A stretch of DNA of 64,000 nt from Candidatus Polarisedimenticolia bacterium. GTDB taxonomy: Bacteria; Acidobacteriota; Polarisedimenticolia; JACPZX01; DASXTC01. Shown piece after piece: positions 48,471 through 64,000 of the stretch. The notes under the pieces were generated by a model. The model searched no databases, was not told the DNA's origin, and was given only the letters and a program-made list of their open reading frames with translations. The position numbers and the translations under genes were made by a program. The number at the start of each line of letters is the position of its first letter. Within the stretch, counting starts at the first letter, position 1. The stretch covers positions 17,303 to 81,302 of the forward strand of contig JBOGOC010000110.1 in NCBI GenBank assembly GCA_050747525.1. The letters run 5' to 3'.

Positions 48471-50800
48471 CTACTGCGGCCGCAGTCGCGTCGCCCGCCT
48501 GATCAGATTGTTTCCTTCCTCACGGGAAAGCAGTCCTGCCTTGACCAGATCGTTCACTTCGCGCGTCACGCACGTGAGGTACGCACCGGGAGAATCCCAC
48601 GTCGCTGTCGGGTCGCAGAGGGCCTGGCCGTTGCAGTCTTCGTCTCGCGCGTCGCCTGGGAGCTCCAGCGCTCCCGGGTAAACGTGTGGGTCACCGTCGG
48701 AACAGTCTCCGTCGCAGGGCGTCCAGCCGTCATGATCGGCGTCGAGCTCAGCCGGGGACAGGCTCCCGTCGCAGTCATTGTCCACCATGTCGCACAACTC
48801 GGGAGCGCCCGGGAAAACAGACACCTGGCCATCGTCGCAGTCGCCGTGGCAGACGGCGAACGTGTCGTCGTCCAAATCGGCCAGGTCCACCCGTCCGAGG
48901 TCCGGCCAGTCGGGGTGGGTGCAGTCGTTGTTGAAGCCGTCACAGATCTCGGTGGCGCCCGGATAGACCGTCCGCTCGGCGTCGTCACAGTCGCAGGCGG
49001 TGCTGAAGCCGTCGCCGTCATAGTCAGGCGAGTTGCTCAGGACATAGCGCTTCCCGTCGCTCAGCTGACCCACAATCGGGTCGCTTCCGCCCCACACGAT
49101 GGCGACGCCGTCCGCCCAGACCATCGTGGCGTCGCGGCGCGGCGACGGAGCGTTCACAAAAGTGGTCGGCCCCCACAGCAGCGTGAAGGGGTTGTAGATC
49201 CCTCCCGTATTCAGGATGTGCAATCCAGCTCCACCACCCCAGACCATCATCCGCTCGCCGCTCCAGATGGCCAGGTGGTTCCCTCGTGGAAGAGGCTCGG
49301 TCCCCGAGCCCGCAATCGGCAGCCAGCTGTTTGATGCCGGGACGAAGCGGCCGACTCCCGTTCGGACGACCGGGCCGGTGCCGCCGTAGATGAGCATCTC
49401 GAGCCCCGTCCATACGGCCGTATGCGCGGTGCGCTCGCGGGCCGCGCCGATCATGCTCGTGGGGACCCACGAGTCAGTGGCCGGATCATAAAGGCCGCCG
49501 CTGTTGAGGTAAATCTCGTTGCAGGAGCCGGACGCTGAAAAGCGGCAGACCCCTCCCCAGATGACCATCCGGTCTCCAGTCCAGACGGCCGTGGCACCCT
49601 CGCGCGGGAAAGGGGCTCCGGTCAGCGAGGTCGGAGACCAGACGTCGGCCACCGGATCATAGCGACCGCCCGAGTTCTCATCTCCGCCAGCCGCCCGGCC
49701 TCCCCAGACGATCATTTCGCTGCCGGTCCAGACGGCGGTGTGGAATTGCCTGGCCGACGGGGCGCCGGCCTGGTTCACGGGGGACCACGTGTCCGTCGCG
49801 GGATCATACCGCCCCCCGCTCGAGTTGCCCCCCCAGATCAGCATCCGATTGCCTGTCCACACGGCGGTGTGAAGTATGCCTCCGGTCGGAGCGCCCAGTG
49901 TGGACACCGGCCTCCAGGAGTCGGTGACCGGGTCGTAGAGACCTCCCTGGCGCCCACCGCTGCCCCAGGTGATCATGTGAGTGCCTGTCCAGATGGCACT
50001 GTGCGCCGACGCCGGCGCTATGCCCCGCGACATGGGAAGCCAGACGTTGTCGGGCCCGCACGCCACGGCCGGCGAAGAGGAGCCGCCGGGCAGAGCCCCC
50101 GGCATGGGCGATTGCCGCAGCTCCTCACTGGCCGCGCTCCACCAGTCGTCGAACGATTCCTTGGGTATGCGATGGACGACACCGGGCGCGCCCTCGCCGT
50201 CGGTGGCCGGCTCGCGGACGAGGAACGCGTCAACCGTCTCCTCCAGGACCGTCTCCGACCGCTCGCCGGCCAGATCGCCCGCGGCCAGGGCCGCCGCCTC
50301 CCTTCGGGCCGCGTCGTGCCGCCCAGGATCGTAGGCGAAGGCCCGGCGGAGCAGCCGATCGGCCAGCAGAGGCCGCACCAGAGATTCCCGGATGAGAACG
50401 GGATCGTGTTCGAGCGCCTCGAACATCTCCTCGAGCCGATCAGGCATCACGGTGCTGTGGGTGATGCGCTCCAGCTCCTCGTCGAGCTGCTCCACGGTGA
50501 TCCTGATACCCCAGAATCGGCTCAGGGCCGACTCCTGGAGAATCCAGGTGTTCACACGTTCGCGAGCCCGCTCAGCTCCTACGAGCTCGTCATAGGAATG
50601 CCTGGCTCGAGAAGATGGCCGGCCTGCACGCGATCGATGGCCACCTGCGCGTCGACCCTGCCCGTGAAGGTGATCTCCCGCCGCGGCGAGGCGTCCGTCA
50701 AGAAGGGTGAAATGACCAGAGACAGGATGGAGGCAAGCCAGAGCATACGACCTCCCATGCGCCACAGGCGCCGTGTCTGGTGAAGGGGTGACCCGATCAT
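48471..50800 (-). CDS. Secreted kelch-repeat protein with C-terminal Cys-rich putative metal-binding (MopE-like) repeats; probable frameshift near 50590
   Basis: Kelch units WTGxxMIxWGG (7 copies). Cys repeats CDCDDAERTVYPGATEICDGFNNDC (3 copies). A signal peptide plus mature start is encoded by a different frame (50800..50579, MLWLASILSLVISPFLTDASPRREITFTG...) that overlaps the 5' end of the long frame (48471..50765). Confidence 0.55.
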
Positions 50801-50988
50801 ACGCTCATTGCCCTCGAGAGGCTTTTTGGTTCCCGCCTTACTGATGTTTTTTATTCCTGCAGCGACGAGGACGCCGTGCCTGGCAACCGTGGGAGTCTAC
50901 CAGGGACGCCCACGCGGCCGGAAAGTATTCCCTTGCGTGAGGCAACAGGCGTATGATCAGGGCCTGCCCAATCGTGAGGAGGTGTACC

Positions 50989-51339
50989 TTGAAGAGAGGA
51001 CTGTTCCTGGTGGCTTTGGCCTGCGCGCTGGCGGGCAGCTCGGCCGGCGCCGCTCCGTTCAGGGTCAGCAAGGTGGAGCTTTTCTTCAACTTCCTGTTGC
51101 GGGACTCATCGTGTCCGCAGGCCACGCACCTGTTCGTGCGCAGGTGCCAGATAAGCGGCGACATCCCTCAGTATTACGCGCGGTTCAGGGAGAACGAGGA
51201 TGTCTCGGCGCTGGAAGACACAAACACGCAGGTGAACGTCAGGGGGATGGTGTCGAAGGTGCAGCACAACTGCTCCCTTCCCATACTCGAGTCCCCGAAG
51301 ATGGAACCACAGACTGACATCTTCGACTGTTTCGACTGA
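50989..51339 (+). CDS. Small secreted hypothetical protein (116 aa), TTG start
   Basis: GAGGAGG 4 nt upstream of TTG 50989. Signal peptide MKRGLFLVALACALAGSSAGAAP. Four Cys residues. Confidence 0.4.
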   Translation: MKRGLFLVALACALAGSSAGAAPFRVSKVELFFNFLLRDSSCPQATHLFVRRCQISGDIPQYYARFRENEDVSALEDTNTQVNVRGMVSKVQHNCSLPILESPKMEPQTDIFDCFD

Positions 51340-51395
51340 TCCGGAACGACCGACCACCGTCTCGGGGACGCCAGCGTTCCCGTACGTCCCTGACA

Positions 51396-54300
51396 TCAGG
51401 GCTCGGTGTACTCGATCCGCAGGCGGGGGGCGGCGAAGGCGCCTCCCTCGAACGACTCGGCGAAGCGCGTGCCGGAGCCGGTGATCAGGAACACCATCGC
51501 GTTCCCGCTGGTCCAGCCGGCCCGGTTGACGATCTCCTGCACGATGGGGGCCAGGTTTGGCGACTTCTGCGCACCGCCCGCCTCACCAGGCGACGGCCAG
51601 GCAGGAGGAGCCCACGAGATCGAGGCCGTTGTCCGTGTTCGGCCGCCGAGGTCGTTCTTGACGGCGGCGAAGGTGGGGGCGTTGTCGGCCGCCTGACCCC
51701 GAATCTGCAGCGACGAGGACGCCGTGCCTGGCATATCGGTCTGGAGCTGCAGCCAGGCTCCCTGGATGACGGAGCCCTTGGGTATGGCGATGTCCGTGAA
51801 ACGCACGCCCACGTACGGGAGGTCTCCCATCGGGAGGTAGCCGAGGTTCAGGGTCACCGCCTTGGTTTTACCGCCCACCTGCTGGGCATCGTCCGATCCT
51901 GCGCTCACGGTGCGGTCCAGAGTGACCACCTGGGCGGGCGGATTCACCACCACGGAGACCGCGCCGAGTCCCACCAGCTCTCCGTCGTCGGCCTGCAGCT
52001 CCAGCACGTAGGTTCCCGGCTCGGAGAAGGTGGCCGTGGTGTCGATGGCCTGGGGATGGGCGAAGGTCACCACGCCCGTCAACGGCCCGGTCTCCTTGAA
52101 CCAGAGGGTCTGGAGGGCTCCCGGAGGATTCGGAAGCCCGTCGTCCGTGACCGTCCCGTTCAGCAGGACGGGGTTGGGGATGCGCACGGTCACCGGCGGC
52201 CCCGGATCCACGGTCGGAACCCGGTTGGACGGTGGCGTGGAGCTGCCGATCTCGACGTGGAGGAGCGCCGCGCCCAGCGGGAGATCCTCCCAGGCTTCGG
52301 CCACGCGCTTGCCGGACCCCTTGATCACCACGACCAGAGCGTTGCCGCTCGACCAGCCCGGGCGGTTCACGATCTGCTGGATGATGGGAGTGATGTCGGG
52401 CGTGCGCTGATTCGGCCCCACCTCGCCCACGATCAGCCACGGCGGAGGAGCCCATGACACGGAGGCCGGTGTGAGCGTCCGGCTGCTCACGTTGAATGAC
52501 GTGGTGGTGAAGGCCGGGGCGTTGTCCACGTTCTGGCCGTAAATCTGGAGCGCGGTGGCGTCCGATGTGGCCTCGTCCGTCTTGAACTGGATCCAGGCCC
52601 GGACGATCCGCTCGCCCTGCCGTACGGCGAGGTTGGGGAAGCGCAGGCCGACGGTCTGCACGGTCGAGTCGAACACAAGCTCCAGGTCGGAGCTGTCCGC
52701 CATGGACCCGCCGGCCTTCTCTTCGACGTCGTCGGCGGCGTTGGTGATGCGCACCTCGACGGGGAAGCCTCCGCTCACACCGTCGGTGACGGTGATGGAG
52801 ACCGTGTCCGTGCCGCTCAGCTGGCCGTCGGTCCCGGTGAGCCGAAGGACGTACGTCCCGATGGTGCTGAAGGACGCTGCGGACTGCGGCGAGCCGGGAG
52901 CCGCGAAGACGACGCTGCCCGGTCCGCTCTCCTTGGTCCAGGCCACCGAGAGGGTGGCCGACGGAAGCCCGTCGTCGGTGACCGTGCCGTTGAGCGTGGC
53001 ATCGGCCGGAAGGATGATGGTGCTCCCGGGTCCCGCGTCGACCACGGGACGCTGGTTGCCTCCAGCAATGGCGCCGAGCCGCACCCAGCGCGCCACCGAG
53101 GGGACACCCGAGGTGTTGACCAGGAAGAGCATGTAGTACCCCGGTGGAGCCACGTTCTGATCGATGGGCGCAGTGGCCACCAGGGTCGAGGCCCCCGTCT
53201 GGGAGAAAGCCAGCGGCACGTACCGCTGCTCGATGTTGATGGCGTGTGTGGAGACCCCCGGCCGCATGAGCACCACCGAGGCGATCGACGCGGCATCCAG
53301 TGAGCCGATGCTCATCGTGCCGCTGTGGGGGACGGCGCCGGGAGCAGAGCCAATCACGGGTCGTGCGCCCCGGAAGAGATACGGCGGCGAGTAGACCTCG
53401 GCGGTGTAGTTGCCGTTGGCGCCCGCCCACAGCACACGCCCGTCAGGCAGGAGAAGGGCCGATGAATGGTATCCACGGCGCGTGCGCTGGGACGCCATGA
53501 CCGTCCACGTTCCGGCGACCGGGTCATACATCTCGGCCGGATAGGCCGGGGTGAGGTCCTCGTCGGTCGTCCCACCCGCCACCAGAACCTTGCCGGTCGG
53601 CAGGATCACGGTGTTGGCGTGCATCCGCCGCCAGGTCATGGGCGGCGCGCTCGTCCACCGGGGCGTGGGGGCAGACATGTCCAGGATCTCGACGGTGTTC
53701 GTGGCCAGGGGGTCGGGCTTCCCCCGGTCCCGCCCTCCCAGGATCATGATCTTCTGGAAGCCGGGCGGCAGCATGACGGAGGTCCCGTGCGTGCGGTTTC
53801 CGTAAAGGCTGGTGCTCACCGGCTGCCAGGTCATGTTGGACGGATTGAAGACGTAGGTATTTCTGTCCGGCCCGATGTGCACCACCTGTCCGCTGGGAAG
53901 CATGTGAAAGCGCGGGTAATAGGTGATGGAGCGCTCGGCGCCCGGGAGGAGCTGGAAGGAGTCGGGCCCGGTCGACCCCGGCACGAAGGCCTCCACCAGC
54001 GGGTTGGTGATGCCATTCTCGTCGGTCCCGCTGAAAACCAGCGTGCGGCCGTCACCCATGAGGACGTTACTCGGATAGTAGCGCCCCGCGCGCATGTCCA
54101 CCGTGCGGGTCCACTGCGTGGTGAGGGGATCGAATATGTAGGCGTGCAGCGCCCCGGTCGTGCCGCCCGGATAGATGGAGCCTCCGGTTATGAGAACACG
54201 GCCGTCCTCCAGGACAGAATTGCCGGAGCACCAGACGATGTCCGGCACTGGCTTGGAAGATATCTGGTTGGTGGCCGGATCCCACACATAGGTGGTGGGG

Positions 54301-54605
54301 ACGTCGTCCTCGTCGCCGCGGAAGAAGAGCACCTTGCCCGTGCGCATGAGGATGGCGTGCACCGCGACCGCGGGCCAGTCCATCGGCAGATCCCACTGCC
54401 CGAACTGGGCAGGGTCTTCAGCAAGGGGGTCGGAGGTCGTGCGCCAGGCAGTGTAGAGCCCGTCATTTCGGGTGAGGGGTTCTTCCGCGTCGGCGGGCTG
54501 GGCACCGCGCTCAGCCGCCTGGCCGGCCACGAGCATGCCGACCAGCACAAGAAGGAGCGCCGATCCGGCCACCGGGCCGCGGAGACTGATGCGGGGCAGC
54601 ACCAT
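51396..54605 (-). CDS. Secreted galactose-oxidase/glyoxal-oxidase-like protein (kelch propeller plus DUF1929-like domain) with two C-terminal ~260-aa repeated domains
   Basis: 1069 aa. Signal peptide MVLPRISLRGPVAGSALLLVLVGMLVAGQAA. Propeller blades. VLMRPGVSTHAINIEQRYVPLAF is a DUF1929-like segment. The C-terminal halves are repeated (IQFKTDEATSDATALQIYGQNVDNAP / LQLQTDMPGTASSSLQIRGQAADNAP). Confidence 0.7.
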   Translation of the reverse strand: MVLPRISLRGPVAGSALLLVLVGMLVAGQAAERGAQPADAEEPLTRNDGLYTAWRTTSDPLAEDPAQFGQWDLPMDWPAVAVHAILMRTGKVLFFRGDEDDVPTTYVWDPATNQISSKPVPDIVWCSGNSVLEDGRVLITGGSIYPGGTTGALHAYIFDPLTTQWTRTVDMRAGRYYPSNVLMGDGRTLVFSGTDENGITNPLVEAFVPGSTGPDSFQLLPGAERSITYYPRFHMLPSGQVVHIGPDRNTYVFNPSNMTWQPVSTSLYGNRTHGTSVMLPPGFQKIMILGGRDRGKPDPLATNTVEILDMSAPTPRWTSAPPMTWRRMHANTVILPTGKVLVAGGTTDEDLTPAYPAEMYDPVAGTWTVMASQRTRRGYHSSALLLPDGRVLWAGANGNYTAEVYSPPYLFRGARPVIGSAPGAVPHSGTMSIGSLDAASIASVVLMRPGVSTHAINIEQRYVPLAFSQTGASTLVATAPIDQNVAPPGYYMLFLVNTSGVPSVARWVRLGAIAGGNQRPVVDAGPGSTIILPADATLNGTVTDDGLPSATLSVAWTKESGPGSVVFAAPGSPQSAASFSTIGTYVLRLTGTDGQLSGTDTVSITVTDGVSGGFPVEVRITNAADDVEEKAGGSMADSSDLELVFDSTVQTVGLRFPNLAVRQGERIVRAWIQFKTDEATSDATALQIYGQNVDNAPAFTTTSFNVSSRTLTPASVSWAPPPWLIVGEVGPNQRTPDITPIIQQIVNRPGWSSGNALVVVIKGSGKRVAEAWEDLPLGAALLHVEIGSSTPPSNRVPTVDPGPPVTVRIPNPVLLNGTVTDDGLPNPPGALQTLWFKETGPLTGVVTFAHPQAIDTTATFSEPGTYVLELQADDGELVGLGAVSVVVNPPAQVVTLDRTVSAGSDDAQQVGGKTKAVTLNLGYLPMGDLPYVGVRFTDIAIPKGSVIQGAWLQLQTDMPGTASSSLQIRGQAADNAPTFAAVKNDLGGRTRTTASISWAPPAWPSPGEAGGAQKSPNLAPIVQEIVNRAGWTSGNAMVFLITGSGTRFAESFEGGAFAAPRLRIEYTEP

Positions 54606-54831
54606 CGTCTCCTGTTCGGTTTTGTCTGAAAACGTCGCGACTGTTTACAGGAACGGACCGACCCTGTCAAGCGGATATTACGGCAAGTCCACCATTCACG
54701 CCGCCGGAATCAGTCGTATTCGATCAACAAACGGGTCGCTTTGTGCGAGCTGTTGTCCCTGTCCTCGTGGCTCTTGACGCGGCACCGCGTATGCCTTGAT
54801 GATTGGACCTTGTTCTCATCTGGAGGAGGCA

Positions 54832-55617
54832 ATGACGCGCACAACAGGACGTCGGTTCATGTTACCCGGGCTGGCCGGAATCGCCATGCTGGCCGCTTCA
54901 TCCCAGGCGCTGTTTGCCCAGACCGATCACTTCAAGTGCTATCAGACCCAGGAGCTGTTCGTCGAGCAGGCCAGGGACGCCGAGCTGACGGACGCCTTCG
55001 GGGGCGATCCGGAGGTCCGCATTCACAACGCGGCCTGGTTCTGCAACCCGGTTTCAAAGGCCGTCGGAGAGGAGGCGCCCACCCCCATCACCGAGCCGGC
55101 CAACCATCTGACTCTTTATCCGCTCTCGAACACCAACCCCTCGCCGCTGCATCGCGTCACCATCGACAACCAGTTCGGGACCCGCGAGCTCGTGATCACG
55201 TCGCCGCGGCTGGTGGCGGTGCCCACCCGCAAGGACGACGAGCCCGACCCGCAGGGGATCAGCCATTTCAAATGCCATCAGGCGAGCGGGCGGCCCGTCC
55301 ACGTGAGGGCCACGCTGGCCGACCAGTTCCAGACCGAGTCGGCGAGAATCCTGCAGCCGCGCTATCTTTGCAATCCGGCCACCAAGACGCTGGAGGGAGT
55401 GACCACCGCTCCGGAGCCAGGAGAAGCTTCTCTGACCTGCTACACGATTGCCCCGGGCGGTCCCCCGCCGGTCGACTTCATCGACTTCGACAACCAGATC
55501 GGCGCCCCGGACACCATGAGGCTCGGTCCGTCCAACTTCTTGTGCGTGCCTACCACCGTGGCCAGCGGGGAAGAGGCGGCGACCGATCGCCGTTACCTGC
55601 GGGACCAGCGGAAATGA
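54832..55617 (+). CDS. Secreted protein with three ~85-aa repeats (HFKCYQ-type), immediately upstream of and translationally coupled to the VgrG-like gene
   Basis: GGAGGAGG before ATG 54832. Signal peptide MTRTTGRRFMLPGLAGIAMLAASSQALFAQ. Repeats DHFKCYQTQ / SHFKCHQAS / ASLTCYTIAP. The stop TGA overlaps the next ATG (ATGA). Confidence 0.6.
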   Translation: MTRTTGRRFMLPGLAGIAMLAASSQALFAQTDHFKCYQTQELFVEQARDAELTDAFGGDPEVRIHNAAWFCNPVSKAVGEEAPTPITEPANHLTLYPLSNTNPSPLHRVTIDNQFGTRELVITSPRLVAVPTRKDDEPDPQGISHFKCHQASGRPVHVRATLADQFQTESARILQPRYLCNPATKTLEGVTTAPEPGEASLTCYTIAPGGPPPVDFIDFDNQIGAPDTMRLGPSNFLCVPTTVASGEEAATDRRYLRDQRK

Positions 55618-57158
55618 GCCGGGCCATGAGACAGATCGCGACTCTCTTCCTCACGGCCGGCATGTTGGCCGGCTCGGCGGCCCGGGCGGAACTCCTGCCG
55701 CTCGTCCTGGAGGACACCGCGACGCGCATCGCGCTGTCGGCGTCACTGCCGCCGGAGGCGGGAGCCCTGGTGCTCGAGGGGTTCCAGGGACACGAGGCGA
55801 TGTCATCCCTGTACTCGTTCCAGCTGGACCTGGTGTCCTCCAACGGGACGACCATCGCCATGGACTCCCTCCTGGGAAAGACGATGGGGGTGACCGTCAC
55901 CACCGCGGGCGGCCGGACGCGGCACTTCCAAGGCATCTGCAGCCGGATCACGCAGGGGCAGAGGGACGGGACCATCCGGTATCGCGCGGAGATGGTGCCC
56001 AGTTTGTGGCTGCTGACGCGACGTCAGTCCAGCCGGGTCTTCCAGGACATGTCCGTGCCCGACATCGTCTCGGAAATCCTGGGCCAGGTTCCGGGCCTCG
56101 CGTTCGAGTCGCGTCTCCAGGGGACCTTCCATCCACGCAATTACGTCGTCCAGTACAGGGAGACCGATTTCGACTTCGTGAGCCGTCTCATGGAAGAGGA
56201 TGGGATCTTCTACTTCTTCCTGCATGACGAGGGCGGTCACACCATGGTGCTGGGCAACAGCCCGCAGGGGCATCCCGACCTTCCTGGCGTCTTCCCCTAT
56301 CTGGGGGGGCGCCTCCTTCCGGGCCGCCCCGACTCCATCCAGGGCTGGGAGAAGACGCAGGAGATCCGGGCGGGCAAGGTCACGCTCCGGGACCACACCT
56401 TCGAGCTGCCGTCGAACGACCTGGAGTTCGGTGCGACCATTCAGGACACGGTGGCCGCCGGCGGCGTGACCCATCGCCTGAGCGCCGGCGGCGGCGACGC
56501 GCTGGAGCTCTACGACTACCCGGGCGGGTACGCGCAACGCTTCGATGGCGTCGACCCCGGTGGCGGCGAGCGCCCCACGGAGATCCAGAAGATCTTCGAC
56601 GACGGCCCGCGCACGGCCGGCATCCGGATGCAGGAGGAAGCGGCGGATGCACTCAGCATCCAGGGACGATCGACCTCGGCCGTCTTCTCGCCCGGGCACC
56701 GGTTCCAGCTCGCGCGGCACTTCGATGGCGATGGATCGTACGTCCTCACCTCGGTGCAGCACTCGGCGCGGGCAGCGGTCTACCAGAACTCCTTCCAGTG
56801 CATTCCCGCCGGCCTGCCGTTCCGGCCGCGCCGGGCCACCCCGAAGCCGGTCATCCCCGGCCCGCAGACCGCGGTGGTGGTGGGCCCTCCGGGAGAGGAG
56901 ATCTTCACCGACAAGTACGGCCGCGTGAAGGTGCAGTTCCACTGGGACCGTCAGGGGCAGAACGACGCTCACAGCTCCTGCTGGATCCGGGTCTCCACGC
57001 CCCATGCCGGGACCGAGCCGGGGTCCTACCTCGTTCCGGAGGTCGGCGACGAGGTGATCGTCGCTTTCCTGGAAGGCGATCCCGATCAGCCAATCATCCT
57101 TGGCAGTGTCTACAACGCGCACCGGCTGCCTCCTCCACCGGCGCTCATCGGCCCATGA
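55614..57158 (+). CDS. VgrG-like / phage gp27-gp5 baseplate hub protein, short form (gp27-like plus gp5 OB-fold, no C-terminal beta-helix spike)
   Basis: ~514 aa. VgrG N-region LPLVLEDTATRIAL...LYSFQLDLVS...LLGKTMGVTVTT...RHFQGICSRITQ, YRETDFDFVSRLMEEDGIFYFF. gp5 OB-fold RVKVQFHWDRQG...SCWIRVSTPHAG...VPEVGDEVIVAFLEGDPDQPIILGSVYN. It ends 10 residues after the OB-fold. Confidence 0.7.
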   Translation: MSRAMRQIATLFLTAGMLAGSAARAELLPLVLEDTATRIALSASLPPEAGALVLEGFQGHEAMSSLYSFQLDLVSSNGTTIAMDSLLGKTMGVTVTTAGGRTRHFQGICSRITQGQRDGTIRYRAEMVPSLWLLTRRQSSRVFQDMSVPDIVSEILGQVPGLAFESRLQGTFHPRNYVVQYRETDFDFVSRLMEEDGIFYFFLHDEGGHTMVLGNSPQGHPDLPGVFPYLGGRLLPGRPDSIQGWEKTQEIRAGKVTLRDHTFELPSNDLEFGATIQDTVAAGGVTHRLSAGGGDALELYDYPGGYAQRFDGVDPGGGERPTEIQKIFDDGPRTAGIRMQEEAADALSIQGRSTSAVFSPGHRFQLARHFDGDGSYVLTSVQHSARAAVYQNSFQCIPAGLPFRPRRATPKPVIPGPQTAVVVGPPGEEIFTDKYGRVKVQFHWDRQGQNDAHSSCWIRVSTPHAGTEPGSYLVPEVGDEVIVAFLEGDPDQPIILGSVYNAHRLPPPPALIGP

Positions 57159-57176
57159 CCCCCGCGGAGCGGCCCT

Positions 57177-57205
57177 TGACAACAACGGGCTCAACCGGTA
57201 GAAGG
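57177..57205 (+). promoter_or_regulatory. Sigma-70-like promoter candidate (TTGACA -17- TAGAAG) for the Cys-rich peptide gene
   Basis: ttgacaacaacgggctcaaccggtagaag sits ~43 nt upstream of ATG 57248. Confidence 0.35.
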
Positions 57206-57247
57206 GATTCCGTATCGCAGTCAACACATCATGTTGAGGAGGGTGCC

Positions 57248-57463
57248 ATGAAGGGAAGGGTCCTTCTGCGTCTCGTTCTCGCCGCCGTCATCGTCGCTTC
57301 CATGGTCGAGGTCATCGGTACCGTGCCGCCGTTGGAGTCCACGGCCATCCCCGCCGGCCATTCCTGTGTGTCGGACGCCGACTGCAAGGGGACGCAGATC
57401 TGCTGTCCGATCAGCGGGACCTGCACGACTCCGCGGGGATGCAGAAAAGACCCTCTCAACTGA
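57248..57463 (+). CDS. Small secreted Cys-rich peptide (71 aa, 6 Cys in the ~35-aa mature region)
   Basis: GAGGAGGG 6 nt before ATG. Signal/TM segment MKGRVLLRLVLAAVIVASMVEVIG. Mature region HSCVSDADCKGTQICCPISGTCTTPRGCRKDPLN. Confidence 0.5.
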   Translation: MKGRVLLRLVLAAVIVASMVEVIGTVPPLESTAIPAGHSCVSDADCKGTQICCPISGTCTTPRGCRKDPLN

Positions 57464-57521
57464 GCGAGGCGGCCGGAATCCCCTGCTTCAGGTCGTATGA
57501 GTACCGGAGTGGGAGGTCCGC

Positions 57522-59582
57522 ATGAGGGACAAGATCCAGGATGCCGTCGACGACGAGGCCCGCCTGGAGGCGCTGCGTCGGACGTTCCTGCTGGACACTC
57601 CGCCCGAAGAGGCTTTCGATCGGCTGACGCGCCTGGCGACGACCGTGCTCAGGGTGCCCGTGGCGCTCGTCACGCTGGTGGCCGCCGACCGGCAGTTCTT
57701 CAAGAGCCAGCAGGGGCTGCCTGAGCCGCTGGCCTCCGCGCGGCAGTCCTCCCTGAAGCACTCCTTCTGCAAGCATGCCGTGGGGACGCGCGAGCCGCTC
57801 GTCGTGCCGGACGCCCGGCGCGATCCCACCTTCGAGAGCAACCCGGCCATCACCGAGCAGGGTGTGGTCGCGTACGCGGGGATCCCGCTGATCGACTCCG
57901 AGGGTCATGCTCTCGGCACGTTTTGCGTCGTGGACGCTCAGCCTCACGACTGGACGGCCGAGGAGATCGCGATCCTCCGGGTGCTCGCGGCGGCCGTCCT
58001 GTCCGAGATAGAGCTGCGGCACATGGCCGGGAGATTGCAAGGCCTGGTGGAGTCCCGCACGTCCGCGCTGCGCGCTTCCGAGCAGCGCCAGCGCGTGCTG
58101 CTCGACGTCAACAACGCCATCGTCACGTGCCTCGACAGGGATTCCCTGTTCTCGGCCACCGCGACCGCGCTGGCGAGCGCGATCCCCTACGATCGCGCCG
58201 CTCTGGTCCTGTACGATCCCGTCAGGGACGTCTTCAAGGTGCTGGGCGTGGCCGGTCCGGTGCCGAACCCTCCCGTGATCCCGCTCGGGACCGAGTGGCC
58301 GCGGAACCAGAGCCGGGCCGGCTGGATCCTCGATCATCACGAGCCGATCCTCTCGAAAGATATACGCGATGAACCACCCTTCTTCGAACACCTCTTCTTG
58401 CTCAGGGAAGGGATCCGCGCAGCGGTCTCGGTTCCCCTGATGGCCAAAGGGAGGGTCATAGGAACGCTGAACGTCGGCAGCCGCGTTCCCGGCCGGTATG
58501 GCGAGGAGGAGGCTTCGCTGCTCACCGCGATCGGCGAGCAGGTGGCGCTTGCCATCGAGAATCTGCTCGCGTACGAGGAAATCGCCGCCCTCAAGGCACG
58601 CCTGGAGGAGGAGAACATCTACCTGCAGGAGGAGGTCCGGGCGGAGGCCGCGTTCGGCGACGTGGTGGGCGAGTCTCCCGTCATCCGAGGCGTCCTCGCG
58701 AACGTGCGCAAGGTGGCAGGGACCGATTCCACGGTGCTCGTCACCGGCGAGACGGGCACCGGCAAGGAGCTGATCGTCCGCGCCATCCATGCCCTGAGCC
58801 GCCGGAAGGACAAGCTCCTGGTGAAGGTGAATTGCGCCGCCCTCCCGTCCGGCGTGATCGAGAGCGAGCTGTTCGGGCACGAGAAGGGGGCGTTCACGGG
58901 CGCGCTGACGCGGAAGGCCGGACGATTCGAGCTGGCCAACGGGGGCACGCTCTTCCTCGACGAGGTCGGCGACCTCCCGCTCGAGCTACAGGCCAAGCTC
59001 CTGCGCGTGCTGCAGGACGGCGAGTTCGAGCGCGTCGGCGGGATACAGACGCTGAAGGTGGATGTGCGATTGATCGCGGCCACGAACCGCGATCTCGAGC
59101 GGGCCGTGCGCGAGGAACGGTTTCGCGCAGACCTCTACTACCGCCTCAACGTCTTTCCGATCGTGATCCCGCCGTTGAGGAAACGCAAGGAGGATGTGCC
59201 GCGACTGGCCCGACATTTCGCCATGTTCTTCGCGTCGAAGATGGGAAAGAACATCGGCATGCTGGGGCCGGAGGTGCTGGAGCGGCTGTCCGGCTACTCC
59301 TGGCCGGGCAACGTGCGCGAGCTGCAGAACGTGATCGAGCGGGCGGTGATCCTCTCCCCCAAAGGCCGCTTTGAGCTGGGCGACTTCGAGCCGGCACGAT
59401 CCGACGTCCCGCATTCCCAGCCGCAGAACCTCGAAGAGGTGGAACGCCGGCACATCGTCTCGGTGCTCGAACAGACCGGCTGGCGGGTCAGCGGGGACCG
59501 CGGCGCCGCCATGATTCTGGGCCTCAAGCGAACGACTCTCGAGGCCCGCATGAAGAGGCTCGGCATCCTCCGCCGTTCCTGA
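57522..59582 (+). CDS. Sigma-54-dependent transcriptional activator with two N-terminal GAF domains, a central AAA+ domain and a C-terminal Fis-type HTH
   Basis: 686 aa. Walker A GETGTGKE. GAFTGA motif. ESELFGHEKGAFTGA. HTH AAMILGLKRTTLEARMKRLGI. Confidence 0.85.
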   Translation: MRDKIQDAVDDEARLEALRRTFLLDTPPEEAFDRLTRLATTVLRVPVALVTLVAADRQFFKSQQGLPEPLASARQSSLKHSFCKHAVGTREPLVVPDARRDPTFESNPAITEQGVVAYAGIPLIDSEGHALGTFCVVDAQPHDWTAEEIAILRVLAAAVLSEIELRHMAGRLQGLVESRTSALRASEQRQRVLLDVNNAIVTCLDRDSLFSATATALASAIPYDRAALVLYDPVRDVFKVLGVAGPVPNPPVIPLGTEWPRNQSRAGWILDHHEPILSKDIRDEPPFFEHLFLLREGIRAAVSVPLMAKGRVIGTLNVGSRVPGRYGEEEASLLTAIGEQVALAIENLLAYEEIAALKARLEEENIYLQEEVRAEAAFGDVVGESPVIRGVLANVRKVAGTDSTVLVTGETGTGKELIVRAIHALSRRKDKLLVKVNCAALPSGVIESELFGHEKGAFTGALTRKAGRFELANGGTLFLDEVGDLPLELQAKLLRVLQDGEFERVGGIQTLKVDVRLIAATNRDLERAVREERFRADLYYRLNVFPIVIPPLRKRKEDVPRLARHFAMFFASKMGKNIGMLGPEVLERLSGYSWPGNVRELQNVIERAVILSPKGRFELGDFEPARSDVPHSQPQNLEEVERRHIVSVLEQTGWRVSGDRGAAMILGLKRTTLEARMKRLGILRRS

Positions 59583-59733
59583 ACCCGGTTCACGATACTG
59601 CCATCCCCTCGGCACTCTCCCAACATATCGGCATGCATCCGGGAAAGACCCTCGGCAGCGCCGCAAGCCTCTCGGCCATCCAAGTCGCTTCGCTTCTGAC
59701 GCTTGCGCTGCACCGCGACGGAGCGATGGAGCG

Positions 59734-59749
59734 TGGCACGCCGCGTGCG
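59734..59749 (+). promoter_or_regulatory. Sigma-54 (-24/-12) promoter candidate upstream of the STAS gene
   Basis: TGGCACGccgcGTGCg has GG-N10-GC spacing identical to the consensus TGGCACG-N4-TTGCA. It lies ~38 nt upstream of ATG 59788 and immediately downstream of the sigma-54 activator gene. Confidence 0.4.
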
Positions 59750-59787
59750 TTGGGGAGTGATGTGCCCGAACAGGCAAGGGGGCCTGC

Positions 59788-60099
59788 ATGGTGATGCGGA
59801 TCACGCGCGAGCAAGGGACCCGATCTCAAGCGACGCTGAAGATCGAGGGGACCGTCACCGGGGAGTGGGCTGCCCTGATGGAGCGCGAGTGCCAGAATCT
59901 TCTTCACTCGTGCGACGCGGTGGGTCTCGATCTCAGAGAGGTCACGTTCGTCGATCGGGCCGGCCTCGAGACTCTCGAGCGGCTCAGCCGGGCGGGGGTC
60001 GAGATCTGCTGCCGCTTCGGGGTCGTCGCCAGCGTGCTCGAGGCGGAAGGGGTCCGCGTCACGCGGGTCTCGAATGGTGTGGACGATGGGCTTCCGTAG
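59788..60099 (+). CDS. STAS-domain protein (anti-sigma-factor antagonist SpoIIAA-like)
   Basis: 103 aa. LKIEGTVTGEWAALMERECQNLLHSCDAVGLDLREVTFVDRAGLETLERL matches the STAS fold pattern. Confidence 0.55.
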   Translation: MVMRITREQGTRSQATLKIEGTVTGEWAALMERECQNLLHSCDAVGLDLREVTFVDRAGLETLERLSRAGVEICCRFGVVASVLEAEGVRVTRVSNGVDDGLP

Positions 60100-60142
60100 G
60101 TGAATCACAAGAACAACGAACGTACTCAACCAGGAGGACGCA

Positions 60143-60901
60143 ATGAAGAGGTCAGTCGTGTTCGCGCTCGCCATGCTGTTCCTGATGTCGCCGACGCTGG
60201 GGTTGGCAGCATCGGTCGTGTTCGAGGCCACGGGGCAGACTCCGGACGAGATCCGGGCCGCGGTGGACGCCTTCCGGACCTTCCTGGGGCCCCTGAACCC
60301 CAATGTGCTCGGCTCGTTCTCCGATGGCCGCCGGGAGATCAACTGGGATGGCGTGCCTGATGCCTTCTCGGCCCCCAACAACCTCCCGCCCAACTTCTTC
60401 AACGCCAACTCCCCGCGTGGCGCCGTGTTCCTCACCCCGGGGACCGGTTTCCAGGTGAGCGCCGACGATGCGAACCCGACGAACACTTCGATCCTGTTCG
60501 GCAACCTGCACCCGGTCTTCCCGCAGCTCTTCACCGTCTTCAGCCCGCAGCGGCTGTTCGCCGCATTGAACAGCAACATGATGGAAACCTTCTTCTTCGT
60601 GCCCGGCAGCGCCGAGGGCGCGACGGTGGACGGGTTCGGCGCGGTCTTCACCGACGTCAACGCTGACGGGAGCACCACCATCGAGTACCTCGACACCGCC
60701 GGAAAGGTGCTGCTCAGCCGGAGCGTTCCCCCGGGACCCACGAACCGCGGCAGCCTCTCGTTCCTCGGCGTGGCGTTCGATGCCGGAGAACGGGTCTTCG
60801 CGGTGCGCATCCTCAGCGGGAATCGATCTCCGGTGACTCCCGCACGCGACGTCGTCGTGATGGACGACTTCATCTACGGCGAGCCGCAGGCGCTCCCCTA
60901 G
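60143..60901 (+). CDS. Secreted hypothetical protein (252 aa)
   Basis: AGGAGG 6 nt before ATG. Signal peptide MKRSVVFALAMLFLMSPTLGLAAS. No recognisable motif. Confidence 0.55.
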   Translation: MKRSVVFALAMLFLMSPTLGLAASVVFEATGQTPDEIRAAVDAFRTFLGPLNPNVLGSFSDGRREINWDGVPDAFSAPNNLPPNFFNANSPRGAVFLTPGTGFQVSADDANPTNTSILFGNLHPVFPQLFTVFSPQRLFAALNSNMMETFFFVPGSAEGATVDGFGAVFTDVNADGSTTIEYLDTAGKVLLSRSVPPGPTNRGSLSFLGVAFDAGERVFAVRILSGNRSPVTPARDVVVMDDFIYGEPQALP

Positions 60902-60978
60902 GCCGGGCCGTCAACCGGGGCGCCGCCGGCCGTGCAGGCAAAGAAGGCCGGCGGCGTATACTCGGTGCGAGGCGCTCC

Positions 60979-63900
60979 GTGATAAAGCTTGCCGGCACCG
61001 GTATCCTGACGATTCTTGCGACGCTCCTGGCAGCTCCTGCCGTGGGGATGCCGTCACGCGATCCCCATTTCGAGCACATCGGCTCGGAGAGCGGCCCGCC
61101 CTTTTCGGTCGTCACGGCACTTCACCAGGATCGCGTGGGGTTCGTCTGGATCGGATCGCGCGACGGCCTGACCTTCTACGACGGCCACACCTACACCACC
61201 TTCGAGCACGATCCGTCCGATCCTTCCTCGCTCTCCGACGATGTCATCCGCACCATCCACGAGGACAGCCGCGGCCATGTCTGGATCGGGACCAACTCCG
61301 GGGGCCTCAACCGGCTGGAGCGAGGCTCGGGGAAGTTCCAGCGTTTCCGCCACGATTCGGCCGACCCGCGCTCTCTCAGCCATGACAGTGTCTACGCGGT
61401 CGTCGAGGATCGCGACGGCAAGGTGTGGGTGGGGACCCAGCGCGGGCTCAACAGGCTCGATCCGGTCACCGGCAAGTTCGAGCGGTTCCTGGCGGATCCG
61501 GCGGCCCCCGGAAGCCTCGGCAGCCACTACGTCAGCTCCCTGCTGATCGACAGACAGGGACGCCTGTGGGTGGGGACCGTCGGCGGCGGATTGAACCGCT
61601 TCGATCCTTCCACGAAGACCTTCGAGACCTGGCGACACGATCCTGCCGACCCCCGCTCGCTGGGAGACTCCTCCGTGTTCGCCCTCCTGGAGGACGAGTC
61701 GGGCGGCCTCTGGATCGGGACCAACGCGGGGCTCAGCCGGATGGATGCACCGGGCCGGTTCAGCCGATTCCCCCACGCGGCAAGGAGCCCGTCGGCGCTC
61801 AGCCATCCCATCGTCACCTCCCTGGCGGCCGGGACGTCCGGCCGCATCTGGGCCGGGACGTTCGGTGGCGGGCTCAACGAGCTGGACCCCGCCACGGGGG
61901 CCATCCGCGCCTTTCATCACGACGAAACGCGGCGCGGAACGATCGGAGCGGATCGAGTCCTCAGCCTTCTGGCCGACAGGGCCGGAGCGCTGTGGGTCGG
62001 CACGTGGGGAGGGGGCCTGAGCCGCATCTCCGGCTCGGCCCTGCTTCTGGCCTCCGGGACCAATGAGGTCCCGGAGCCACCCGGGTTGGAGGATCGTGAC
62101 GTCACAGCCATGGCCAAGGGCGACGACGGGACCATCTGGATCGGCATGCGCAACGGGGCGCTGATACGCCGTGGCCCGGGAGCGGGGGCCTACGAGACCC
62201 ACAAGCTGGACGACTCGGTGCTGCGCATCCTCCCCGCTCGCGATGGAGAGCTCTGGGTCGGCACGAGCCACGGGCTGCTGCGCTTCCATCCGGATCCTTC
62301 GAAACGCCTCTGGCTCCGTCACGACCCCGGCGACGCGGCCAGCCTGGGCCCCGGGTTCGTCCCCGCACTTCTGGAGGATGCCGATGGGCATCTGTGGGTG
62401 GGGACCGGAGAAGGGGGCCTGAACGAGCTCGACCGAGAGGGACGTGTGCTGCGGCGCTTCCTCCATGACCCCTCCAATCCGTCCAGCCTGAGCGACGACT
62501 ATGTCACCGCGCTTCACCTGGATCGGGACGGGATCCTGTGGGTCGGCACGCGATCGGGAGGAATCAACACCCTGAACCGGGCCACGGGCCGCGCGGTGCG
62601 GCATGTGGCCGACCCAGCGGACCCGCACACCATCAGCCACCATAATGTCACCGCCATCCTCGAGGACCGCCGGGGCCGCCTCTGGGTGGCCACGGGAGGA
62701 GGAGGGCTCAACCGCGCCGATCGATCCGGATCAGCCGGAGAGCCCGTCCGCTTCACCCGCTTCACGACGGCGGATGGACTGGTGGACAACAACGTCATGT
62801 CCGTTCTCGAGGACGACGACGGCAGCCTGTGGGTCAGCACCAAGCGCGGGCTGGCGCGATTCGCCCCCGAAAGCACGACGTTCACGAACTACTTCGTGGC
62901 CGACGGGCTCCCTACCGCCGAGTTCGAGTTCGGCGCCGCCGTGAGGACGCAACGCGGCCTGCTTTTCGGCTCCGTCGACTGGGTGGTGGCCGTGCCTGCG
63001 GGCATGCCCCTTCCCCAGCCCGTCCCCTCCCCGACCGTGGTCACCTCGGTGAGGGTTCGATCCGACGAACTGCGCGGCGAGCGTCCTTCCTGGTCGCTTG
63101 AGCAGATGGAGATCCCGTGGGGCACGTGGTTCTCCATCGAGGTGGCCGTGATGGACTTCAACACACCTCACAGCCATGCGCACGCCTATCGCCTGGGTCA
63201 GGGCCCGGGAGAGGACGGCTGGATCGATCTCGGCCCGCGCCGCACGATCACCTTCACCGACCTCGGCCCGGGGCGCTACGAGTTCGTCGCCCGCGGTCGC
63301 AACTGCCAGGGGGTGTGGACCAGCACGAGCACCCCGCTGCATATCCGCGTGGTCCCTCCGTTCTGGATGACTACCTGGTTCCGCGCGCTTTCGGTGGGGT
63401 TCCTTGCGGCCGTGGTCATCGTGACTCACCGCATGCGTCTGTCCGCCCTGGAGCGCCGGAATAGAGAGCTGGTGCTCCTGCATGAGCAGCGGGAGAGGGC
63501 CAACCGCGAGCTGGGCCTCGCCTACGAGCGGCTGCAGACCCTCGCCGGGCGCCTGGAGGCCGCCAAGGAGGACGAGCGGAAGAAGATCGCCCGGGAGCTG
63601 CACGACGACCTGGGCCCGGCGCTCACGGCGGTGGTCATCAACCTGCAGCTTCTCGGCCGGGAGCAGGATCGGGTACGCTTTGCCAGGCGTCTGGAGGACT
63701 CCATCGATCTGGTCGACCGCATGGTGCAGCAGATCCGTGACCTGTCCCTGGCCCTTCGCCCGCCCTTGATGGACGAGATGGGGCTCGGCGGCGCGCTGAG
63801 GGGGTACCTCGAGACGCAGGCGGAGCGCACCGGCCTCGACATCGAGGTGCGCGGCGACGCCGCCACGGACGGGCTCCCCCCCCAGGCAGAGATCACGGCC

Positions 63901-64000
63901 TTCCGCGTGGCGCAGGAGGCGGTCACCAACGCCATCCGGCATGCCGAGGCCCGCCGGATTGTCGTGACCCTCGACAGCGGAGTCGGCGGGCTGGAGATCA
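60979..64000 (+). CDS. Sensor histidine kinase, partial (3' end beyond the window): periplasmic two-component-regulator propeller repeats plus Y_Y_Y domain, TM, HisKA_3 (NarL-type) dimerisation domain
   Basis: GTG 60979. Open frame to the window end, so it is absent from the ORF track for lack of a stop. Signal/TM VIKLAGTGILTILATLLAAPAVG. More than 12 propeller repeats (VWIGTxxGLNRLD). Y_Y_Y-like segment GRYEFVARGRNCQGVWTS. TM WFRALSVGFLAAVVIVT. HisKA_3 ERKKIARELHDDLGPALTAVVINLQL. Confidence 0.75.
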   Translation, partial: MIKLAGTGILTILATLLAAPAVGMPSRDPHFEHIGSESGPPFSVVTALHQDRVGFVWIGSRDGLTFYDGHTYTTFEHDPSDPSSLSDDVIRTIHEDSRGHVWIGTNSGGLNRLERGSGKFQRFRHDSADPRSLSHDSVYAVVEDRDGKVWVGTQRGLNRLDPVTGKFERFLADPAAPGSLGSHYVSSLLIDRQGRLWVGTVGGGLNRFDPSTKTFETWRHDPADPRSLGDSSVFALLEDESGGLWIGTNAGLSRMDAPGRFSRFPHAARSPSALSHPIVTSLAAGTSGRIWAGTFGGGLNELDPATGAIRAFHHDETRRGTIGADRVLSLLADRAGALWVGTWGGGLSRISGSALLLASGTNEVPEPPGLEDRDVTAMAKGDDGTIWIGMRNGALIRRGPGAGAYETHKLDDSVLRILPARDGELWVGTSHGLLRFHPDPSKRLWLRHDPGDAASLGPGFVPALLEDADGHLWVGTGEGGLNELDREGRVLRRFLHDPSNPSSLSDDYVTALHLDRDGILWVGTRSGGINTLNRATGRAVRHVADPADPHTISHHNVTAILEDRRGRLWVATGGGGLNRADRSGSAGEPVRFTRFTTADGLVDNNVMSVLEDDDGSLWVSTKRGLARFAPESTTFTNYFVADGLPTAEFEFGAAVRTQRGLLFGSVDWVVAVPAGMPLPQPVPSPTVVTSVRVRSDELRGERPSWSLEQMEIPWGTWFSIEVAVMDFNTPHSHAHAYRLGQGPGEDGWIDLGPRRTITFTDLGPGRYEFVARGRNCQGVWTSTSTPLHIRVVPPFWMTTWFRALSVGFLAAVVIVTHRMRLSALERRNRELVLLHEQRERANRELGLAYERLQTLAGRLEAAKEDERKKIARELHDDLGPALTAVVINLQLLGREQDRVRFARRLEDSIDLVDRMVQQIRDLSLALRPPLMDEMGLGGALRGYLETQAERTGLDIEVRGDAATDGLPPQAEITAFRVAQEAVTNAIRHAEARRIVVTLDSGVGGLEI

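Follow-up and report, generated by a model that had tools for sequence, protein, structure and literature searches.

The gene at 55614..57158 on the forward strand of the 64-kb stretch of DNA that we analysed (hereafter the window) encodes a 514-aa homologue of VgrG that bears a predicted signal peptide and lacks a spike. VgrG, a component of a contractile machine, is regarded as strictly cytoplasmic and as leaving the cell only upon firing of a type VI secretion system (T6SS). Our favored reading, to which we assign a probability of about 0.6, is that this hub is a Sec-exported VgrG core, probably trimeric, which acts outside the cytoplasm independently of T6SS firing; it would represent a derivative of VgrG that has been withdrawn from the type VI secretion machinery. 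The combination of a signal peptide with an absent spike is common to at least 37 protein clusters, mainly from MAGs of Polarisedimenticolia.

The product is a true VgrG core, comprising a gp27-like hub and a gp5 OB-fold, and the preliminary description, which had made this call from the sequence, was right on this point. It is recovered by the VgrG model TIGR03361 (6.9e-134; model positions 6-451 of 513 covered), while its gp27-like hub domains (residues 60-386; 55791..56771, forward strand) match Pfam Phage_GPD (PF05954, 1.3e-80) and its gp5-type OB-fold (residues 433-500; 56910..57113, forward strand) matches Phage_base_V (PF04717, 1.3e-19). A structural model had been proposed as a check, and the AF2 model of the hub as a monomer (pLDDT 84.7, pTM 0.83; pLDDT above 90 for most of the gp27-like domains) has a VgrG-like fold, with Foldseek matching it to P. 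aeruginosa VgrG1 (4mtk_A) at E 1.2e-48 and TMq 0.79. Phmmer returned 7q5p and 4mtk for hub residues 36-507 with E-values of 3e-90 and 1.4e-87, and this segment aligns with residues 6-460 of the 645-residue VgrG 7q5p. As the alignment stops at residue 460 of 645, a beta-helix is absent from the hub, which terminates 13 residues past the GSVYN motif, as expected from the earlier remark that the protein ends right after the OB-fold. PF22178 and PF06715 have no match in the hub, whereas they are matched by canonical homologues, and the tail following the OB-fold measures 0-19 aa in the clade to which the hub belongs as against 120-380 aa in 80 canonical VgrGs. With the beta-helical spike lost, the protein therefore has neither a PAAR-docking tip nor the usual C-terminal end that binds effectors or adaptors. 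Its identity is 53-57% to canonical VgrGs (about 55% to those of Planctomycetota and Acidobacteriota) and 36-37% to solved VgrG structures; its match in PHROGs is to one unannotated family only.

Like the T6SS VgrG/TssI proteins (P. aeruginosa VgrG1 PA0091, 4MTK/4UHV; P. protegens VgrG1, 7Q5P), the hub combines gp27-like domains with a gp5 OB-fold, but unlike them it has no beta-helical spike, PAAR site or C-terminal effector/adaptor platform, possesses a predicted Sec-type signal peptide that is absent from 77 of the 80 canonical VgrGs, and belongs to a clade without adjacent T6SS genes (8 loci). The N-terminal VgrG fragment of E. coli CFT073 c3393 (2P5Z; E 1e-30, Foldseek TMt 0.80) likewise consists of OB-fold and hub without a spike, and indicates that a VgrG core is able to fold as a separate unit. 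However, 2P5Z was shortened in the laboratory from a full-length cytoplasmic VgrG, whereas the truncation of the hub is natural, conserved and accompanied by a predicted export signal.

The first 25 residues of the hub, MSRAMRQIATLFLTAGMLAGSAARA followed by E (55614..55688, forward strand), were recognized as a Sec-type signal peptide by a rule-based test of run length and hydrophobicity with a threshold of our own. The segment is made up of MSRAMRQ, IATLFLTAGMLAGSA and ARA ahead of that E, and displays an n-region with two Arg, a 17-residue uncharged hydrophobic run and an A-x-A motif at -3/-1; AF2 assigns residues 1-35 a pLDDT below 50. Judged by its sequence, it bears every hallmark of a Sec signal cut by signal peptidase I, though it could instead be an uncleaved membrane anchor. 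A lipoprotein signal was rejected, there being no lipobox Cys at the right place, as was a Tat signal, since the RR motif is absent from the hub and from most members of the clade. Equivalent N-termini recur across the clade: 1-3 K/R precede an uncharged run of 13-27 residues, with small residues at -3/-1 near position 23 and a Kyte-Doolittle mean over 8 residues of 2.1-3.6. The threshold was passed by 33 of 41 short homologues versus 3 of 80 long canonical VgrGs. The character of the segment has been kept while its sequence diverged, and dN/dS is 0.64 in the signal-peptide region versus 0.32 across the whole hub gene. Further, GGAGG lies 5-9 nt ahead of the start that includes the signal peptide in all 7 other clade loci; in the window the start at 55614 is marked by the ATGA overlap with the preceding gene. 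The raw hub ORF begins at 54741. The preliminary description had called the hub cytoplasmic-type and its association with Sec-signal proteins unusual; the first term does not apply to a protein with its own (rule-based) N-terminal signal peptide, and the oddity disappears because the hub itself carries a Sec-type signal, which is conserved clade-wide. The literature yielded nothing relevant on a VgrG with a signal peptide, or on a periplasmic or Sec-dependent VgrG.

In a search with a profile of the clade the best 37 matches were all 476-528 aa long and scored 781-936 bits, with canonical VgrGs following at 779 bits or less; in these clusters (at least 37) length and both termini recur at 53-77% identity. 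In a search of 50%-identity representatives the main clade is a single representative (P0001), and three more distant short representatives with a signal peptide emerged (P0163, P0165 and P0216). A neighbor-joining tree places the short forms with a signal peptide in a group separate from the canonical VgrGs. The matches listed for a contig search with the hub were all canonical VgrGs, at 55% identity or less and with no clade member among them, and they served as the canonical control set. All clade sequences are derived from MAGs or metagenomes of uncultured bacteria. Comparison of the hub gene with 7 clade members gave dN/dS values (NG86) of 0.29-0.42, and an alignment of 31 clade sequences contains 87 invariant columns. 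The core is as highly conserved as in canonical VgrGs, and a comparison of the two groups found no clade-specific fixed substitutions in it, although the YTQxxR motif at the N-terminus of canonical VgrGs is less strictly kept in the clade; such conservation of the core would equally be compatible with retained contacts to T6SS partners, for example Hcp.

These data bear on the idea that the gene is a decaying remnant, that is a vgrG cut short by a stop codon, its hydrophobic N-terminal extension having arisen by chance in GC-rich DNA. High-GC genomes do yield long spurious upstream extensions, as with the raw ORF from 54741 here, but a remnant would hardly have a recurring length (476-528 aa) and the same two ends in 37 clusters or more, show dN/dS of 0.29-0.42, have strong Shine-Dalgarno sites exactly ahead of the signal-peptide starts, or keep its hydrophobic A-x-A character through sequence turnover. 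We hence regard decay as very unlikely, with a probability close to nil. The clade is a stand-alone gene under purifying selection, in shifting neighbourhoods without T6SS genes.

Regarding these neighbourhoods, the preliminary description had reported no T6SS core genes in the window, and this is confirmed: Pfam searches of 25 ORFs in it recovered no T6SS or eCIS core genes, and BLASTP with T6SS families from the surroundings of canonical VgrGs against all window ORFs was likewise negative. A complete T6SS cluster just outside, which had been raised as the outcome that would make this an ordinary auxiliary island, was sought in the flanks of the window, over ~9 kb on the upstream side and ~7 kb on the downstream side, where we found no T6SS or eCIS genes. 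When homologues of T6SS-linked families (ClpV, TssA/B/C/E/F/G, Hcp, DUF2169, DUF4123 and DUF6931) were counted within 10 kb, they were present at 0 of 8 clade loci, including the window, versus 45 of 52 canonical loci, all of them 15 kb or longer (Fisher p = 2.5e-6). Three adaptor families that are frequent around canonical VgrGs (DUF4123, DUF2169 and DUF6931) are missing from the window locus, and none of the 8 clade loci has PAAR, DUF4123, DUF2169, DUF6931 or effector-like neighbors. An integrase fragment occurs ~2 kb upstream of the window.

The hub might alternatively be an ordinary orphan or auxiliary VgrG that works with a T6SS whose genes lie at another place in the genome, the short form being a minimal spike cap and the hydrophobic N-terminus no export signal. 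Its 53-57% identity to canonical VgrGs and a core devoid of clade-specific fixed differences are compatible with this proposal, and orphan vgrG islands are common according to the literature (e.g. PMC10671463). In such islands (e.g. that of P. ogarae F113 VgrG5a, PMC10671463) vgrG lies away from the main T6SS cluster, but the VgrG is full-length, genes for adaptors, effectors and immunity proteins accompany it, and the islands depend on a T6SS; no such genes accompany the hub. Orphan islands normally carry PAAR, adaptor or effector genes, which 8 of 8 clade loci lack, and a protein without a beta-helix can offer neither a PAAR tip nor a place for effectors or adaptors at its C-terminus. Moreover, a conserved n-h-c signal peptide with A-x-A would steer it away from the cytoplasmic baseplate, and the YTQxxR motif is relaxed. 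We accordingly consider an auxiliary VgrG unlikely, while granting it a small share of the probability.

Much less probable still is a hub of an eCIS, tailocin or prophage tail whose remaining genes lie elsewhere, the first two of which the preliminary description had suggested. The 514 aa of the hub come near the size of Afp8 and Pvc8 (529-538 aa), the eCIS/PVC/Afp spikes (Afp8 6RBK, Pvc8 6J0M, AlgoCIS 7AEF) share its arrangement of hub and OB-fold and are matched by Foldseek (TMq 0.52-0.64, E about 1e-23 to 1e-29), and the upstream integrase fragment could be read in the same direction. At the sequence level, however, only the OB-fold of the hub resembles these spikes (E 1e-7 to 1e-10 for Afp8 and Pvc8, 1e-7 to 1e-11 with AlgoCIS included), as against 3e-90 for a T6SS VgrG. 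Those proteins retain a short spike, with ~90 residues after the OB-fold versus 5-13 here, and their genes sit inside operons for sheath, tube and baseplate, unlike the hub gene, around which no sheath, tube or baseplate genes are found in ~80 kb here or at the 7 other clade loci. We know of no eCIS or phage hub with a signal peptide. Hence, of the earlier suggestion of a truncated or recruited hub of eCIS or tailocin type, the truncation stands, as the spike is absent, and recruitment points in the right direction, whereas the affinity to eCIS or tailocins is contradicted by ~55% identity to T6SS VgrGs and by the absence of contractile genes at 8 loci.

The hub gene is preceded by a gene for a 261-aa secreted protein (54832..55617, forward strand) with a GGAGG ribosome-binding site ahead of its ATG, a predicted signal peptide of about residues 1-30 (cut between ALFA and QTD) and four beta repeats of ~55 aa. 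It matches DUF7450 (PF24247) in 2 stretches at 4e-21 and 75.7 bits, versus a cut-off of 27. The preliminary description counted three repeats, but an alignment of 14 homologues reveals four of the form HFKCY..DQF..CNPxxK, the second without cysteines. AF2 predicts an all-beta structure (pLDDT 86, pTM 0.81), for which no fold match was found in the PDB, and nothing relevant on DUF7450 was found in the literature. As had been noted, its stop codon overlaps the hub start in an ATGA (55614-55617). Downstream, the ATG of the next gene (57248..57463, forward strand), preceded by GGAGG, lies 89 nt past the hub stop (a gap previously given as 90); its product is indeed a secreted 71-aa peptide with 6 Cys (C-x6-C-x5-CC-x5-C-x5-C). 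The spacing resembles that of the last six Cys of the WAP four-disulfide core (PF00095), but the peptide differs from a WAP domain in having 6 of the 8 Cys, a Pfam score of 20.6 bits, just below the cut-off of 20.8, and a bacterial origin, with a single homologue found; it is thus WAP-like at most. PADLOC returned no match for the hub, the DUF7450 protein or the Cys peptide.

As all three proteins are predicted to be secreted, they would meet outside the cytoplasm, and one could envisage an exported three-protein complex specific to this locus, in which the hub has two dedicated partners, cargo or chaperone, namely the DUF7450 protein and the WAP-like peptide. A single transcript is suggested, since the first two genes overlap in the ATGA, the third follows after 89 nt and no terminator-like site occurs in 54400..57700; all three genes encode signal peptides and have GGAGG or coupling, and a homologue of the Cys peptide with all 6 Cys recurs downstream of the closest clade member (locus L088, 2638..2853). 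That is the only one of the 7 other clade loci with such a peptide, and in it no gene lies within 358 nt ahead of the hub while an extra gene separates the hub from the Cys peptide. Further, DUF7450 is missing beside VgrG at 7 of 7 other clade loci and at all 80 canonical loci, and none of the loci examined for DUF7450 homologues, including that of a paralogue in the same MAG, adjoins a VgrG. A recurrent linkage of the repeat domain to VgrG, which had been suggested for checking, is therefore contradicted, the two being adjacent in this genome only, and the earlier notion of a stranded effector-adaptor set fails on this pairing and on the lack of DUF4123, DUF2169 and DUF6931. We find a dedicated complex unlikely, and place both flanking proteins outside the conserved unit because they are lineage-specific.

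Returning to the Sec-exported VgrG core, we propose that Sec would export the hub precursor, with cleavage probably after Ala25, and that the mature core of ~490 residues would fold in the periplasm, from where it may travel further out, for instance via a type II system. There it would most likely form the trimeric cup typical of gp27/gp5 hubs, and might act as a binding or scaffold module rather than as a projectile of the T6SS. Here the hub would be co-transcribed, and probably translationally coupled, with the secreted four-repeat DUF7450 protein. A bolder and quite improbable extension is that exported VgrG cores constitute a previously unrecognised extracytoplasmic class, either as a periplasmic decoy or cap against the T6SS of attackers or as the hub of a new structure that is put together outside the cytoplasm. 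As the Hcp-facing gp27 surface is kept, a decoy could capture Hcp rings or spike complexes as they arrive and blunt the attack. Either version, if true, would be the first hub of a contractile injection system routed through Sec. Binding of Hcp or spike parts would hint at a novel form of protection from attack by a T6SS, and binding of something else would make this a new scaffold family. With the needle lost and a Sec signal gained, the gp27/gp5 hub fold would appear to be reusable as a free-standing exported module. Every clade member is currently labeled 'type VI secretion system tip protein VgrG', which on this reading would inflate T6SS counts in Acidobacteriota MAGs and call for caution with annotation pipelines; literature searches found nothing relevant on T6SS in Polarisedimenticolia.

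A consensus promoter scan of 54400..57700 gave a single match (shuffles average 0.2), the sigma-70-like candidate TTGACG-18-GATGAT before the DUF7450 gene (54774..54803, forward strand; a consensus match only). The promoter previously read before the Cys-peptide gene, TTGACA-17-TAGAAG (57176..57204, forward strand), does have its -35 (57176-57181), 17-nt spacer and -10 (57199-57204) in place, but does not pass the scan, as the last T is missing from its -10 hexamer. Our own weighted scan also picked out a weak sigma-54-like element (GG-N10-GC), CGGCACCGCGTATGCC, 52 nt before the DUF7450 ATG (54780..54795, forward strand), a function of which would be speculative; no counterpart occurs upstream of the 7 other clade genes, and conserved sigma-54 regulation cannot be claimed from a lone weak match in the window. 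A sigma-54-dependent activator with a GAF-GAF-AAA+-HTH_8 architecture (57522..59582, forward strand; Sigma54_activat 1.6e-71, GAF, HTH_8) is encoded 58 nt after the Cys-peptide gene, and is possibly a regulator of the locus.

Profile searches with the 514-aa product of the hub gene (55614..57158, + strand) recovered Phage_GPD (1.3e-80) and Phage_base_V (1.3e-19) in Pfam and the NCBIfam VgrG model TIGR03361 (6.9e-134), of which only positions 6-451 of 513 are covered. Residues 36-507 align to 6-460 of the 645-residue VgrG1 of P. protegens (7q5p; 3e-90), and the same stretch aligns equally to P. aeruginosa VgrG1 (4mtk; 1.4e-87). An AlphaFold2 model from 54 homologues (pLDDT 84.7, pTM 0.83) has 4mtk_A as its best PDB match (E 1.2e-48, TMq 0.79). 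These results bear out the preliminary description in calling a VgrG hub, and by sequence homology the protein is a VgrG. They also agree with its statement that the hub ends right after the OB-fold: 13 residues follow the conserved GSVYN motif that closes this fold, whereas 80 canonical relatives, i.e. full-length T6SS VgrGs, have 120-380 residues beyond it, making up the beta-helix spike.

The hub had been considered cytoplasmic-type, which overlooked its own signal peptide-like N-terminus, MSRAMRQIATLFLTAGMLAGSAARA/ELL, in which two arginines are followed by 17 uncharged, hydrophobic residues and by Ala at -3 and -1. In a 5.8-billion-protein collection, every one of the closest homologues is 476-528 aa long, ends 0-19 residues past GSVYN and bears an N-terminal extension of ~25-30 residues that is like in character and diverged in sequence. 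A rule asking for 15 or more uncharged residues in a row and an 8-residue hydropathy of at least 2.0 picked out 33 of 41 short homologues versus 3 of the 80 long ones; the small -3/-1 residues tend to fall at position 23-25. In seven other loci GGAGG lies 5-9 nt 5' of the start codon that includes the signal segment. Judged from these comparisons, the hydrophobic N-terminus did not arise by chance in a single GC-rich ORF. As no lipobox cysteine was found, and most members of the clade of short signal-peptide forms have no twin-arginine motif, it looks, by rule-based inference, like a Sec/signal peptidase I signal.

The flanks of eight distinct clade loci, each up to 10 kb long, contain no T6SS or contractile-tail genes, and the neighborhoods are unrelated to one another. 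As a control, the ORFs neighboring 80 canonical VgrG genes (among the genome-scan matches listed) were all clustered and the recurrent families named by Pfam. This recovered ClpV at 43 of the 80 loci, TssG at 35, TssF/E at 34, TssC at 28, Hcp at 23, DUF2169 at 17, DUF4123, TssA and DUF6931 at 16 each, and TssB at 13. Of the 52 canonical loci that span 15 kb or more, 45 had at least one T6SS-linked family, versus none of the eight clade loci (Fisher p = 2.5e-6). The window itself had been described as lacking T6SS core genes, and indeed its ORFs match none of the control families; Pfam searches of 25 of them found no machine parts, and recovered large secreted proteins (FG-GAP, TSP3, subtilases, Kelch, cohesin), a CHAT-TPR protein and a Ser/Thr kinase. 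Nor are these families present in the ~9 kb before the window start or the ~7 kb past its end, where a complete T6SS cluster had been considered possible. With no beta-helix or PAAR site, no linkage to T6SS genes and a signal peptide of its own, the hub falls outside the T6SS spike family on function-defining features. It could in principle be an auxiliary VgrG serving a distant T6SS, its core being undiverged from the canonical one, but the missing spike and adaptors and the signal peptide render this rather improbable. The earlier proposal of an eCIS- or tailocin-like hub is not supported, and an eCIS, tailocin or phage hub is unlikely: the hub resembles Afp8/Pvc8 of eCIS in sequence over the OB-fold alone, and no tail genes were found nearby.

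In a neighbor-joining tree of the core region the short signal-peptide forms lie apart from canonical VgrGs, as a main group with a neighboring trio; a few short forms lacking the signal peptide are basal in the canonical group. A 31-member clade profile retrieved 37 short proteins at 781-936 bits, with the first canonical VgrG only at 779 bits. An exhaustive search of 1.84 billion representatives at 50% identity collapsed the main clade into a single representative and added three more divergent short signal-peptide representatives (P0163, P0165, P0216). Named members derive mostly from Polarisedimenticolia MAGs, with one from a Planctomycetota and one from a Verrucomicrobiales MAG, and every clade member is auto-annotated as "T6SS tip protein VgrG". 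The dN/dS (NG86) of the hub against seven clade members is 0.29-0.42, and that of the signal-peptide segment against the closest member 0.64. No clade-specific fixed substitutions relative to canonical VgrGs were found; the clade does show relaxation of the canonical YTQxxR motif at the N-terminus and of the residues that begin the spike linker. A pseudogene is ruled out by conservation.

Spike-less cores of 460-500 aa without a signal peptide also occur (P0038, P0058, P0119, P0186, P0231, P0290, P0312 and proteins of loci L028, L030 and L033), and form basal branches of the canonical group. Some come from MAGs carrying an Actinomycetota or Gaiellaceae label; these are to our knowledge monoderm lineages where a T6SS is not expected. 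The L033 gene (9477..10931; Actinomycetota MAG DASWED010000031.1) has genes for a subtilase, a histidine kinase and an HtrA-like protease as neighbors, and none of a T6SS. Such cores may represent an intermediate step, with spike loss followed by signal-peptide gain, or MAG contamination.

On the sequence evidence, then, the hub is a spike-less VgrG core with a conserved Sec-type signal, encoded by a stand-alone gene under purifying selection. We propose that its precursor is exported by Sec and cut after Ala25 by signal peptidase I, and that the core would fold outside the cytoplasm, where it probably forms a gp27/gp5-type trimeric cup. The laboratory-truncated c3393 fragment 2P5Z indicates that the core is stable as a unit. 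Outside the cytoplasm the hub would act as a binding or scaffold module and not as a projectile. In the literature searched, no description of a signal-peptide-bearing VgrG was found; such a protein should surprise T6SS specialists and is cheap to test, though the clade is small and its hosts are uncultured.

The hub is the second of three genes in the same direction. The first (54832..55617, +), with GGAGG before its ATG, encodes a 261-aa DUF7450 protein (Pfam, 4e-21) with a signal-peptide-like N-terminus (..SSQALFA/QTD), and its stop overlaps the hub ATG as earlier noted (ATGA, 55614-55617). This protein had been described as triple-repeat, and the repeats are real; there are, however, four of them, each of ~55 residues (HFKCY..DQF..CNPxxK), the second without cysteines. 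Its confident all-beta model (pLDDT 86) has no significant PDB match. The third gene (57248..57463, +; GGAGG before the start) encodes the previously reported 71-aa, six-cysteine peptide, at a distance of 89 nt from the hub gene. The peptide has a hydrophobic N-terminus and the pattern C-x6-C-x5-CC-x5-C-x5-C, and scores 20.6 bits against Pfam WAP, slightly below the 20.8 cut-off. A scan of 54400..57700 found no terminator-like sites. The three proteins, all presumably exported, may be made together in this genome, possibly driven by sigma-70-like and weak sigma-54-like elements 5' of the first gene.

A dedicated complex of hub, DUF7450 protein and Cys peptide is not supported by comparative data, though it might still occur in this lineage. 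DUF7450 has only 15 homologues; those whose loci were examined, including a paralog on another contig of the same MAG, are not adjacent to a VgrG, and DUF7450 is absent from all other VgrG loci fetched. A recurrent linkage of its repeats to VgrG, raised earlier as something to check, was not found. In the locus of the closest clade member (L088, 77% identity) nothing lies within 358 nt 5' of the hub, and a Cys-peptide homolog with all six cysteines kept occurs downstream, after an intervening secreted 168-aa protein. This recurrence is consistent with synteny among closely related genomes and may also reflect some loose functional connection of peptide and hub. The hub's neighbors are not conserved partners.

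The weak sigma-54-type element (CGGCACCGCGTATGCC, GG-N10-GC; 54780..54795, +, 52 nt 5' of the DUF7450 start) is not conserved among other clade loci; together with a GAF-GAF-AAA+-HTH sigma-54 activator 58 nt past the third gene (57522..59582, +), it hints at autoregulated sigma-54 control. In locus L091 sigma-54-activator fragments lie immediately 5' of the hub gene. The activator opens a same-strand regulatory run (57522..64000, and 7380..15226 of L097, the DNA past the window end) with a STAS-domain protein (59788..60099), a secreted 252-aa protein without a family (60143..60901), a 1069-aa histidine kinase with a beta-propeller sensor and two response regulators.

The hub's neighborhood is a "secretome": giant proteins that are secreted or surface-located are unusually numerous in the window (966..18441, 29058..33125, 39208..44357, 48471..54605), namely Big_5/FG-GAP/TSP3 (1894 aa), subtilase/TSP3 (3122 aa), FG-GAP (1355 aa), subtilase-Kelch-cohesin (1422 aa, then a 294-aa cohesin protein), Kelch/MopE (764 aa) and galactose-oxidase-like with PKD (1069 aa) proteins. 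Four ORFs (6647..8527, 24104..26974, 27014..28090, 45126..46277; 626, 956, 358 and 383 aa; GC3 0.73-0.79) have no Pfam match at E <= 1e-4. A 200-aa phage-integrase fragment (8072..8674 of L096, the DNA running past the window start) is located some 2 kb before that end. In assembly GCA_974107545.1, a MAG of Candidatus Polarisedimenticolia (Acidobacteriota), the window sequence is divided between contigs CDBFBP010000146.1 and CDBFBP010000107.1. A 1154-aa TPR-CHAT protein with a caspase-like protease domain (33138..36602) adjoins a 654-aa Ser/Thr kinase with DUF4384 (37111..39075), a pair resembling signaling or defense-type modules. Among the other loci, L003 and L090 have in common a downstream zf-HC2 anti-sigma protein and a ~595-aa ECF-sigma/CMD fusion on the opposite strand, and L006 and L091 share YCII, an ECF sigma with DUF6596 and Ser/Thr kinases with Tricorn/PD40 domains; such sharing probably stems from residual synteny and not from function.
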